Of a stretch of 64,000 bases of DNA, positions 30,335 to 31,740 are shown in pieces. Position 1 is the stretch's first letter, and each line of letters starts with the position of its first letter. The notes under the pieces are model-generated. The model ran no database searches. It was not told the origin of the DNA and worked only from the letters and a program-made list of their open reading frames with translations. Both the position numbers and the translations under genes were made by a program. Location: sequence record PQ511148.1; one strand, 5' to 3'. The DNA is from Escherichia phage NHEP10.

Positions 30335-30574
30335 TTATTTGAATTTCTTAGCGATGTTGATATAACGTAGAGCTTCGGCATCAATACTTCCAAGGACACT
30401 ATGAAGGAATGCGTCGGCATAGTATTCTAGTTGAACAGGTTCTTTAATCGCTTTAGCCGCTTTAGTTTCAAACAGGCCCATAAGGGCCTTTTTAAGAATT
30501 TGTTCGTTGCTGTTAATTTTAATAGTCAAAATCTCTTCATTAAGTTGGTGGTTAAAAGTTTTTCTAGAAATCAT
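30335..30574 (-). CDS. hypothetical protein (79 aa)
   Basis: ATG with SD GAGGT. Confidence 0.45.
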   Translation of the reverse strand: MISRKTFNHQLNEEILTIKINSNEQILKKALMGLFETKAAKAIKEPVQLEYYADAFLHSVLGSIDAEALRYINIAKKFK

Positions 30575-31740
30575 TCTGGGTACCTCAAAGCGTCGTCAGA
30601 GTTAGTTATATCAATAATAGATATAGAATTTTCTGATAACCCATTTTTAGATAACTGACGTTTATAATATCTTTCACAATATGTACACGTCGTCCCACAG
30701 ATTTCATTAGCACAATCGAAATCTGGATGTCTGAACCACCTTTTTTCTAAAAAGCCGTCTAACAAAGAGGTTTCAATATTTACCGTATGTGAAAACTCGG
30801 TCTCATTTTCAAGAGTGAAAATGGTCTCTAAAGGCTTCCACAATTCCAACAAATTACCTTCAAACTTTTCAGAAGCGTATGCTTCAAGAACTTTCAAAAT
30901 GTAGTCGGTGCTACCTGTACGTCCTGAAACTTTGAATTGAGTGATACCAATATCATTATAAAGTTTCAAATCTTGTGGACGAACAAAACGAGTTCTCAAC
31001 CAGTTAAATGGGTCTGTATCACGAGCTTTAATACAGTGCTGCATAGGATATCCATTTAATGATTTGGCATCATCTACTGTAACATCGGTGCTATGGAAAA
31101 TATAGCAAGAGTCACGATAGCTACAATGTGTTGTATACCCTTTACCAGCATTAGAACAGAACTCATTTACAAGAACTTCAAATATTATATTGTTCTTATT
31201 GCAAAACTCTGCTGCACGCTTCAGGAAAGAAACTGAACGGTTCTTATGAATTCCACAGCAGACCTTTTTGATATTATACTGGTCATGCAAGTATTTGATT
31301 TGAGTTACAGCATCGACATGTAGAATTGTTGAAACTTCAATCTCAATGTCTTTATTGACTTCACGAACAATTTCCATAACAACAGGGTTAGCGATAGTAA
31401 TACGCCATACGCCTATTGACCAAAGATACTGAACATAATCCTGAATAGCTTTCTTCTTCCACTCAACTAGTTCTCTTTTTGAACCGGGATTTATCGTGTT
31501 GAGTGTATAGTTAAAGCAAATACCTAATTCGTTACAACGTTTAACGTAATCTTCTAACATCTTTTTGTCAACGTCAGGAAGCCTAAAATCAGGTCTGGCT
31601 GCTACAAAAGCCATTTCTCTTGTAGAGCCATATACTTCGTTTATCAAGCTATTAGGATAGGTTTTATTGAGCTCTACGATTTTATCAAGAAGAGCTAAAT
31701 CAAAATTCGTTCCGATTTTAAAAGTATTCATTTTTTGCAT
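30571..31740 (-). CDS. hypothetical Cys-rich protein (389 aa), part of sugar cassette
   Basis: C-terminal half rich in Cys/His (HCSYRDSCYIFH, CANEICGTTCTYCERYY); no family recognised; no clear SD. Confidence 0.55.
   Translation of the reverse strand: MQKMNTFKIGTNFDLALLDKIVELNKTYPNSLINEVYGSTREMAFVAARPDFRLPDVDKKMLEDYVKRCNELGICFNYTLNTINPGSKRELVEWKKKAIQDYVQYLWSIGVWRITIANPVVMEIVREVNKDIEIEVSTILHVDAVTQIKYLHDQYNIKKVCCGIHKNRSVSFLKRAAEFCNKNNIIFEVLVNEFCSNAGKGYTTHCSYRDSCYIFHSTDVTVDDAKSLNGYPMQHCIKARDTDPFNWLRTRFVRPQDLKLYNDIGITQFKVSGRTGSTDYILKVLEAYASEKFEGNLLELWKPLETIFTLENETEFSHTVNIETSLLDGFLEKRWFRHPDFDCANEICGTTCTYCERYYKRQLSKNGLSENSISIIDITNSDDALRYPE

Follow-up and report, generated by a model that had tools for sequence, protein, structure and literature searches.

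The window analyzed here is a stretch of 64,000 nucleotides from Escherichia phage NHEP10 (PQ511148.1), and our subject is a minus-strand gene within it that encodes a protein of 389 amino acids (aa). The nucleotide identity of this region to phage RB69 and to many Mosigviruses is 97.7–98.3%, which by sequence identifies the window as an RB69-type Mosigvirus and the gene as the ortholog of RB69 gp50. A preliminary description, made from the nucleotide sequence alone, had noted clustered Cys and His residues in the protein, and both of the motifs that it quoted were recovered (HCSYRDSCYIFH, residues 205–216; CANEICGTTCTYCERYY, residues 343–359). The gene, which lies at the coordinates given in that description, and its features are as follows.

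30571..31740, minus strand: U32-family protein, 389 aa (RB69 gp50/ORF050c ortholog), an ATG-to-stop open reading frame (ORF)
30874..31452, minus strand: match to the Pfam Peptidase_U32 profile, residues 97–289, inside the predicted TIM barrel (Pfam and AlphaFold2, AF2)
30940..31170, minus strand: Cys-rich insert, residues 191–267, between barrel strands 7 and 8, with putative iron-sulfur (Fe-S) site 1
30676..30714, minus strand: C-terminal CX4CX3CX2C (C343, C348, C352, C355), a putative second metal or Fe-S site

The preliminary description had left the protein without a recognized family. However, it scores above the cut-off for Pfam Peptidase_U32 (PF01136; 42.4 bits versus 22.4, E = 6.4e-11, residues 97–289), as does its ortholog from phage LC53 (44.5 bits), and a match to PHROG 5757 spans it from end to end. 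The NCBIfam model for UbiU (NF047963) gave only a weak match of 19.3 bits against a cut-off of 440, which is far too low for a UbiU equivalog. PF01136 was the only domain that Pfam detected in the protein; the DUF3656 domain with which it is combined in RlhA was absent, and this argues against an RlhA assignment. Collectively, these sequence comparisons indicate a U32 member with a variant Fe-S motif that is neither RlhA, TrhP, nor UbiU.

Remote-homology searches and structure prediction, both of which had been proposed as checks, supported this placement. An AF2 model built with 31 homologs (mean predicted local distance difference test score, pLDDT, 90.9; predicted TM-score, pTM, 0.90) comprises eight alternating strands and helices that form a TIM barrel, with the strands lying within residues 5–271, and a small C-terminal module that bears the CX4CX3CX2C motif. 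The top match of the model among PDB structures in Foldseek was the U32 protein Mk0906 (5d88), the sole solved U32 structure (E = 2.9e-7, TM-score of 0.66 on the target); the remaining matches were generic barrels. Searches of PDB sequences with the protein and with a family profile recovered no U32 protein and one spurious match, such that kinship to solved U32 structures is visible by fold only, as judged from the model. Lee et al. also matched RB69 gp50 to 5d88 (PMC13326640). Mk0906 differs from the phage protein in that it shares 12% sequence identity, comprises only a barrel of 247 aa, and has no assigned function; it leaves both the Cys-rich insert and the C-terminal module of the phage protein unmatched.

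BLASTP comparisons with the four U32 proteins of Escherichia coli (RlhA, TrhP, UbiU, and UbiV) were insignificant. In profile comparisons with hhalign, the same four proteins aligned over ~200 columns with probabilities of 95–96% (E = 4e-9 to 5e-8). Residues E161, C169, C176, H180, and C196 of RlhA align to E188, C206, C212, H216, and C236 of the phage protein, respectively. Mutagenesis has shown that E161, C169, and C176 of RlhA (PMC5727448) and E162, C170, and C177 of TrhP (PMC6599085) are required, while H165 and Q175 of RlhA are dispensable (PMC5727448). Counterparts of the two dispensable residues are not conserved in the phage protein, and in this alignment all of the motif residues that are known to be required in RlhA and TrhP (Glu, Cys, Cys) are kept. 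The homology recovered is thus to cellular hydroxylases with chemistry that fits the pathway, and not to a well-characterized but unrelated phage protein, an outcome that the preliminary description had put forward as counting against a role in DNA modification.

The protein contains 13 Cys among its 389 residues (3.3% versus 1.35% in ORFs of the window; binomial P = 0.003). A cluster of four Cys in a span of 13 residues also arises in 4.8% of shuffled sequences. The enrichment in Cys is modest by composition alone; it is the conservation that is decisive. C161, C195, C206, C212, C236, H216, and the four C-terminal Cys (C343/C348/C352/C355) are invariant in all 121 close homologs. In a deeper set of 128 representatives at 24–50% identity (129 sequences in total), C195, C206, and C236 are present in every sequence, position 212 is Cys in 76 and His in 52 (128/129), E188 immediately upstream of the Cys-rich insert is present in 96, and the four C-terminal Cys are each kept in 121–123. 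C161 is present in only 74 and is therefore not conserved at this depth, which leaves C195/C206/C212/C236 and C343/C348/C352/C355 as the likely ligand sets. The metal or Fe-S binding suggested in the preliminary description was thereby strengthened, with two conserved putative four-ligand sites, one of which is by sequence homologous to the [4Fe-4S] site of U32 hydroxylases.

The first of these sites is a variant. The spacing of its Cys residues is CX10CX5CX23C versus the canonical CX6CX15CX3-4C; three of the four canonical positions align (C206, C212, and C236), while the fourth, C192 of RlhA, is occupied by Pro232. The invariant C195 located upstream is a plausible substitute for the missing ligand, by analogy with UbiU and UbiV, each of which holds a [4Fe-4S] cluster through four Cys of which one is displaced from the canonical motif (UbiU C232 and UbiV C39). 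At the C-terminus, RlhA also requires Cys residues (C580 and C611; PMC5727448). A functionally relevant C-terminal Cys cluster is common to RlhA and, putatively, the phage protein, although the arrangement differs (C572, C580, C611, and C614 in RlhA versus CX4CX3CX2C in the phage protein).

Most database records name the protein a 'peptidase', 'putative protease', or 'collagenase-like protease', and some U32 proteins, such as PrtC, have been reported to be collagenolytic (PMC5727448). A genuine peptidase or collagenase nevertheless appears extremely improbable. Neither a catalytic mechanism nor catalytic residues are defined for U32 'peptidases' (PMC5727448), the conserved residues of the phage protein are putative metal ligands and the Glu that is required for hydroxylation, and the genomic context described below is one of nucleotide and DNA modification with a supply of prephenate. 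Support for this explanation otherwise consists of inherited names.

The characterized U32 enzymes offer a different set of precedents. RlhA is needed for 5-hydroxycytidine at position 2501 (ho5C2501) of 23S rRNA (PMC5727448) and TrhP for 5-hydroxyuridine at position 34 (ho5U34) of tRNA (PMC6599085); both are prephenate-dependent, and Fe-S clusters are needed directly or indirectly (PMC10990095). UbiU/UbiV carry out three O2-independent hydroxylations in ubiquinone synthesis with prephenate as the proven oxygen donor, and their function is restored by the chorismate mutase domain of PheA alone (PMC10990095). The role of prephenate as oxygen donor has been shown for UbiU/UbiV and inferred for RlhA and TrhP (PMC10990095). 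In air, unrelated O2-dependent counterparts catalyze the equivalent reactions, namely the rhodanese-family protein TrhO and the flavin enzymes UbiI, UbiH, and UbiF (PMC10990095; PMC6599085).

Each of these systems resembles the phage protein in part. RlhA (YdcP) belongs to the same Pfam family and catalyzes the same reaction as that proposed here, hydroxylation of cytosine at C5; its required Glu and two Cys are in register with those of the phage protein and are followed by a CY(I/L)xH motif and a later Cys. It differs in length and architecture (653 aa with DUF3656 versus 389 aa without it), in binding 50S precursors, in having C192 where the phage protein has Pro and appears to use the upstream C195 instead, and in its substrate, which is rRNA rather than the presumed deoxynucleotide or DNA. 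UbiU and UbiV are, like the phage protein, small U32 proteins; the proposed phage substrate is likewise a small molecule, and the aerobic counterparts are flavin- and O2-dependent mono-oxygenases. They differ in that they form a heterodimer, rely on the accessory protein UbiT, and act on a prenylated phenol rather than a pyrimidine. Neither a second U32 gene nor a UbiT-like gene was found in the window. The closest system in logic is TrhP (YegQ) together with TrhO, where the same 5-hydroxypyrimidine is generated by a U32 enzyme that depends on prephenate and by an O2-dependent enzyme unrelated to it. Organisms that meet both oxic and anoxic conditions retain both TrhP and TrhO (PMC6599085). 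The parallel in the phage is a U32 gene located one small ORF away from the gene of an O2-dependent ThyA-like hydroxylase, a putative redundancy in which the aerobic partner would be a flavin-binding ThyA homolog instead of a rhodanese. TrhP itself differs from the phage protein in acting on tRNA uridine and in having an extra C-terminal domain.

The genes that surround the U32 gene are listed below.

28129..28677, minus strand: thymidylate-kinase-like (Tmk-like) nucleotide kinase, RB69 gp45 type (PHROG 761; Table 1 of PMC13326640)
28678..29577, minus strand: 299-aa DNA glycosyltransferase, RB69 gp46:47 type
29577..30293, minus strand: ThyA-like 5-hydroxy-deoxycytidine monophosphate (5-hydroxy-dCMP) synthase, RB69 gp48 type (99.6% identity to RB69 ORF048c)
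30335..30574, minus strand: 79-aa ORF (RB69 ORF049c, PHROG 8601; ORF scan and PHROG)
31788..32189, minus strand: HAD phosphatase, AfhF/gp51 type, 133 aa
32174..33859, minus strand: bifunctional sugar kinase/nucleotidyltransferase, AfhE/gp52:53 type, a single 561-aa ORF
33914..34066 (interval 33860–34040), minus strand: small ORF between the nucleotidyltransferase and SIS isomerase genes, the counterpart of RB69 ORF054c
34041..34676, minus strand: SIS-domain arabinose-5-phosphate isomerase, gp55 type

In the direction of transcription the order is DNA polymerase, SIS isomerase, sugar kinase/nucleotidyltransferase, HAD phosphatase, U32, the 79-aa ORF, the ThyA-like gene, the 299-aa glycosyltransferase, the Tmk-like kinase, and UvsX. 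The ATG of the 79-aa ORF overlaps the stop codon of the U32 gene as ATGA. A scan for promoters and terminators returned counts no greater than expected from shuffled sequence, and operon boundaries were therefore not drawn. The preliminary description had positioned the gene between the HAD phosphatase and 'gene 42'. The HAD phosphatase is where it was said to be; on the other side the 79-aa ORF intervenes, and the neighbor beyond it is not a dCMP hydroxymethylase but the near-identical counterpart of RB69 gp48.

The identity of this neighbor defines the chemistry of the pathway. The modified base in the DNA of RB69-type phages is arabinosylated 5-hydroxycytosine (5hoC) rather than hydroxymethylcytosine (PMC13326640, 2026), and 18O2 labeling has shown that the ThyA-like gp48 generates 5-hydroxy-dCMP with flavin and O2 (PMC13326640). 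Findings for the window that assume hydroxymethylcytosine thus need to be revised. In T4-like phages the modified base is introduced at the mononucleotide level (PMC13326640). On the sugar side, the synthesis of UDP-arabinofuranose is accounted for by the isomerase, the kinase/pyrophosphorylase AfhE, and the HAD phosphatase AfhF, according to Lee et al. and the work cited there (PMC13326640). The product of the U32 gene, gp50, appears in that study only in Table 1, where it is listed as 'Sugar or heterocycle reductase' on the basis of its fold match to 5d88. Other routes of pyrimidine hydroxylation are mentioned in the Discussion with reference to the RlhA and ho5U papers, without a link to gp50 (PMC13326640).

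We screened phage records for the genes of this cassette by tblastn. The U32 gene was detected in 221 records, all at 80% identity or higher, and the host genera listed were all Enterobacterales with the exception of Shewanella. The ThyA-like hydroxylase was detected in 373 records, including those of 57 Acinetobacter phages, 20 Rhizobium phages, and Agrobacterium phages; neither Acinetobacter nor Rhizobium was among the host genera listed for U32. In Acinetobacter phage Maestro, Pseudomonas phage PspYZU05, Enterobacter phage Q7622 (Kanagawavirus), and E. coli phage JS98 (Dhakavirus), the HAD phosphatase gene abuts the ThyA-like gene and U32 is missing. The otherwise complete nature of these cassettes suggests that U32 is a discrete accessory insert. 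The insert is confined to phages of facultative anaerobes and does not occur in all of them.

This distribution bears on an enzyme of the sugar branch, whether an epimerase, an oxidase, or a reductase, that makes or tailors nucleoside diphosphate-arabinose, a role close to the sugar epimerization or oxidation proposed in the preliminary description. The arabinose cassette does enclose the gene, with the HAD phosphatase on one side and the ThyA-like gene on the other, and divergent homologs co-occur with homologs of nucleoside triphosphate-transferase/kinase, SIS isomerase, and epimerase genes. In addition, the BASEL-type annotation of MZ501056 reads 'putative enzyme involved in UDP-arabinose biosynthesis', and half of the label given by Lee et al. 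is 'sugar'. However, the cassettes of Maestro, PspYZU05, Q7622, and JS98 are complete but for U32, and DLP3 and Maestro reportedly make arabinosyl-5hoC in its absence (PMC13326640). Since phages that lack U32 make the modified base, U32 cannot be required for the synthesis or transfer of arabinose. Moreover, the isomerase, AfhE, and AfhF cover a synthesis of UDP-arabinofuranose that has reportedly been reconstituted. Activity on sugars is not known for any U32 member, and the linkage to chorismate mutase and 3-deoxy-D-arabino-heptulosonate 7-phosphate (DAHP) synthase genes described below would be left unexplained. We therefore regard a function in the sugar branch as highly improbable, and the suggestion of an epimerase, oxidase, or transferase is not borne out.

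The genes for chorismate mutase, the enzyme that makes prephenate, offer indirect support for a dependence of U32 on prephenate. In Winklerviruses, a 114-aa type II chorismate mutase (Pfam, 44.6 bits versus a cut-off of 27) is encoded directly after the U32 gene, the stop codon of which overlaps its start codon. Homologs of this protein were detected in 56 phage records, which cover at least 11 genera, and were located at the U32 locus among the matches listed. In Shewanella phage Thanatos-1 the cluster is rearranged, and U32 and chorismate mutase remain an overlapping pair. All 15 T4-like loci examined in IMG/VR have genes for the glycosyltransferase, the Tmk-like kinase, the ThyA-like protein, the HAD phosphatase, and sugar activation, and 13 of them have a chorismate mutase gene within 333 bp of U32; the exceptions are the RB69 and Marfa types.

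The neighborhood could also suggest that U32 is no hydroxylase itself but serves the ThyA-like hydroxylase as a redox partner, perhaps by restoring reduced flavin mononucleotide (FMN) as an Fe-S flavin or 'heterocycle' reductase. FMN is bound only loosely by gp48 (PMC13326640), which would call for a reductant, the U32 and ThyA-like genes are neighbors in 15 of 15 T4-like loci, and 'heterocycle reductase' is the other half of the label of Lee et al. Nonetheless, gp48 and DLP3 gp80 function in E. coli without U32 (PMC13326640), and the Acinetobacter phages carry the ThyA-like gene without it. Conversely, in 38 of the 39 divergent loci described below, U32 is present and a ThyA-family gene is absent from the vicinity. 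A flavin reductase is not known among U32 proteins, and the prephenate link would again be unexplained. Taken together, this makes a redox partner very unlikely.

The family extends well beyond T4-like phages. A metagenomic family at 45–58% identity comprises 467 clusters at the 50%-identity level (E ≤ 1e-30). We examined 39 divergent loci, in which 8–10 kb was visible on each side; the viral contigs that contain them are as long as 466 kb, and many encode DnaE-type polymerases. A homolog of the 299-aa glycosyltransferase of the window was present in 28 of these and often abutted U32 (E = 1e-10 to 1e-17), and ~10 also encoded homologs of the sugar kinase/nucleotidyltransferase and the SIS isomerase. 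Other neighbors included dCMP deaminase, a Tmk-like kinase, a gene of the dUTPase/DCD family, and uracil-DNA glycosylase (UDG), as well as a TAGT-like transferase, UDP-galactopyranose mutase, and epimerases. A ThyA-family gene was found within 10 kb in a single locus and was an ordinary thymidylate synthase (244 bits). In 7 of the 39 loci, a DAHP synthase or a fusion of DAHP synthase and chorismate mutase was encoded at most 622 bp from U32. The assignment as DAHP synthase is based on 237 bits versus 63 bits for 3-deoxy-D-manno-octulosonate 8-phosphate (KDO8P) synthase, and at least three of the enzymes tested are fusions to chorismate mutase with both domains above threshold. The occurrence of U32 beside a DNA glycosyltransferase and genes of the prephenate route, with no flavin hydroxylase nearby, is what would be expected if U32 makes the hydroxyl group that the transferase glycosylates. 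Across these many phage lineages the linkage of U32 to DNA modification is conserved, which agrees with the role in a modification pathway that had been proposed from gene position.

Two further side observations concern these loci. DAHP synthase genes lie at 8399–9430 of L046, 7290–8354 of L049, 8323–9384 of L050, 11082–12200 of L060, 9145–9891 of L007, and 9384–10127 of L035; they lie right beside U32, and several of them encode a chorismate mutase domain fused at the C-terminus. In these uncultivated large phages they represent shikimate-pathway auxiliary genes in viruses. A radical S-adenosylmethionine (SAM) gene of the SPASM type is located beside the glycosyltransferase-U32 pair at 1–249 of L004, 7980–9011 of L015, and 7972–9000 of L016, and could indicate that the modified base is tailored further.

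The only characterized U32 enzymes with nucleic acid substrates act on RNA, and T4-like phages encode tRNAs. A mimic of host TrhP or RlhA that hydroxylates RNA (tRNA U34 or 23S rRNA C2501) and tunes translation might thus be considered. Against this, the extra C-terminal domain of RlhA (DUF3656) or TrhP was not detected by Pfam, the host already has both enzymes, the gene is confined in the phage database to phages with the 5hoC cassette, and elsewhere U32 abuts genes for a DNA glycosyltransferase and nucleotide metabolism. An RNA substrate is accordingly considered most improbable. A U32 hydroxylase with another target, such as cytosine in DNA (as post-replicative mopping-up), dUMP, or a second position, is unlikely rather than implausible. 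RlhA and TrhP act on polymers, and dCMP deaminase genes adjoin U32 in several large phages, which suggests that the modified base could belong to the uracil series in those phages. Nevertheless, the base enters at the mononucleotide level in T4-like phages, where the neighboring genes encode nucleotide-level enzymes, and no DNA-binding domain was evident in the Pfam scan. Such variants keep the core chemistry and are refinements rather than true rivals.

Family membership, conserved ligands, conserved essential residues, and gene linkages are shown here, and from them we infer Fe-S binding, the use of prephenate, the substrate, and an anaerobic role. Specifically, we consider it probable, with moderate confidence, that the gene encodes an O2-independent, prephenate-dependent U32 hydroxylase that provides an anaerobic route to 5-hydroxydeoxycytidine (5-hydroxy-dC) for arabinosyl-5hoC DNA. 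We are more confident that the product is a U32 Fe-S enzyme with a role in modifying the base, as opposed to the sugar, than we are of this specific mechanism. The TIM-barrel enzyme is predicted to bind an Fe-S cluster via C195, C206, C212, and C236, and a second metal or Fe-S center may be held by the C-terminal CX4CX3CX2C. It would oxidize C5 of cytosine, with dCMP as the most likely substrate and dCTP or cytosine in DNA as less likely ones, and, by analogy with UbiU/UbiV, prephenate would be the oxygen donor. The 5-hydroxy-dC formed without O2 would complement the activity of the neighboring ThyA-like flavin enzyme, which strictly needs O2, such that arabinosyl-5hoC DNA could still be built when a facultatively anaerobic host grows under anoxic conditions, for example in the gut.

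The proposed mechanism depends on a supply of prephenate. RB69-type phages would take it from host PheA and TyrA, while phages of most other genera would use their own chorismate mutase encoded beside U32 and some large phages a DAHP synthase or DAHP synthase-chorismate mutase fusion. These phage enzymes probably feed the large demand for prephenate that a genome-wide modification would impose. A genome of ~168 kb with 37% GC contains ~6e4 cytosines, from which we estimate millions of hydroxylations per burst; this demand would be far above that of the host RNA or quinone pathways.

Several observations weigh against this proposal. The support consists of sequence, a structural model, and gene context, and in vitro reconstitution had yet to be achieved for any U32 hydroxylase at the time of PMC10990095. 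By sequence, the cluster site is a variant, with Pro at the position of RlhA C192. Lee et al. label gp50 a 'sugar or heterocycle reductase' (PMC13326640). No chorismate mutase is encoded in the window (best tblastn E = 1.4), such that the strongest linkage to prephenate comes from relatives, and host PheA and TyrA would have to supply it, as they do for host U32 enzymes. The enterobacterial lineages represented by Dhakavirus JS98 and Kanagawavirus Q7622 lack U32, which indicates that it is not indispensable in facultative anaerobes, and the correlation with host rests on few independent lineages. The divergent genomes could encode a ThyA-like gene elsewhere, beyond the 8–10 kb in view. Our literature search, which did not extend to the potentially relevant He et al. 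2026 (Nat Chem Biol) or to Mahler et al. 2025, identified no paper tying U32, prephenate, or chorismate mutase to 5-hydroxycytosine in phages. Both of these papers are cited by Lee et al., in whose work gp50 is nevertheless an uncharacterized predicted reductase (PMC13326640). No mention of the gene was found in the 2018 RB69, Thanatos, and Durham collection papers, and a search on the Afh gene names returned Lee et al. only.

A broader hypothesis, to which we assign about an even chance, is that a phage clade of U32 Fe-S enzymes (at least 467 clusters) hydroxylates deoxycytidylate, or cytosine or uracil in DNA, without O2 and by means of prephenate. Together with the glycosyltransferase, these enzymes would form an 'anaerobic' pathway to glycosylated 5-hydroxypyrimidines that is common among large phages outside the T4 group and draws on chorismate mutase and DAHP synthase encoded by the phages, while enterobacterial T4-like phages would carry both the aerobic and the anaerobic route. 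A related precedent is provided by phage CmoA/CmoX, which generate 5-carboxymethylcytosine DNA. There, a prephenate-consuming enzyme of tRNA 5-alkoxyuridine (xo5U) synthesis has likewise been recruited for genome-wide modification of cytosine at C5, and the authors of that work raise the supply of prephenate as an issue. That system differs in comprising unrelated enzymes, a SAM carboxylase and a C5-methyltransferase homolog, in its product, in acting post-replicatively, and in having no U32 protein. A role for the phage chorismate mutase in feeding a CmoA-type carboxy-SAM pathway was considered and rejected; no CmoA-like gene was present in the loci examined, and the chorismate mutase is physically coupled to U32.

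Arabinosyl-5-hydroxycytosine has only recently been recognized in RB69-type phages and in many phages that are candidates for therapy; the hosts are gut Enterobacterales, and the one known hydroxylase needs O2. If the proposal is correct, the gene now labeled 'peptidase' would have an anaerobic phenotype, and phage replication in anoxic niches would be explained. Phages that lack U32, such as JS98, would be predicted to fail or to lose the modification in the gut, with a bearing on phage therapy and on the evasion of restriction and CRISPR. The protein would be the first U32 enzyme to act on DNA precursors, extending prephenate-dependent hydroxylation beyond RNA and quinones, and would offer the U32 field a soluble enzyme with a small substrate for the in vitro reconstitution that is still missing. 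Phage chorismate mutase and DAHP synthase would in turn be auxiliary genes that feed DNA modification.

The 79-aa ORF between U32 and the ThyA-like gene occupies a slot that adjoins the position where other genera have chorismate mutase. A degenerate chorismate mutase was rejected as an explanation, given that BLASTP found no match, that hhalign returned a probability of 5% or less, and that Yersinia phage TG1 and Serratia phage 92A1 encode both the 79-aa ORF and chorismate mutase. Beyond PHROG 8601, no family with a detectable match was found. The ORF is frameshifted by two 1-nt insertions in the HY126 record and is matched in two pieces in AV113, AV116, phi25-307, and VIPECOMC06; these broken copies could be either recurrent sequencing errors or real decay. 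The ORF is probably not an obligate partner of U32. A family motif, EYYxDAF(I/L)HS, is conserved; homologs lie at 5218–5500 of L068, 3266–3463 of L011, and 3271–3495 of L012.

The 114-aa chorismate mutase of Winklerviruses (L002, 5660–6004) is extended by 39 aa at its N-terminus. The beginning of this protein (MRRINHTMNELVIK) is similar to the N-terminal sequence of the 79-aa ORF family (MNRINHNLNERLVK in 92A1; L012, 3271–3495), a likeness in sequence that suggests a deletion that fused a remnant of the 79-aa ORF to chorismate mutase in Winklerviruses.

Other features of the cassette also vary among relatives. The glycosyltransferase (299 aa) and the sugar kinase/nucleotidyltransferase (561 aa) are each intact in the window and split in the RB69 reference as ORF046/047 and ORF052c/053c. 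Lee et al. put these splits down to sequencing errors (PMC13326640), a view that the single ORFs in the window support. The small ORF at 33914–34066 matches 47-aa 'transmembrane' ORFs annotated in LC53 and HY126, and its position is conserved across genera. In JS98 (L003, 2854–3354), U32 and the SIS isomerase are both missing and an unrelated 166-aa ORF is present in the region; its arabinose-5-phosphate presumably comes from host KdsD or GutQ. Genes for Seg-like GIY-YIG homing endonucleases were found in or beside the cassette (L001, 4352–4990; L002, 3854–4492; L013, 6239–6892). One is inserted between the HAD phosphatase and U32 in Winklerviruses, and uvsX is split in Thanatos, which shows that the junction of the U32 module is an insertion hot spot.

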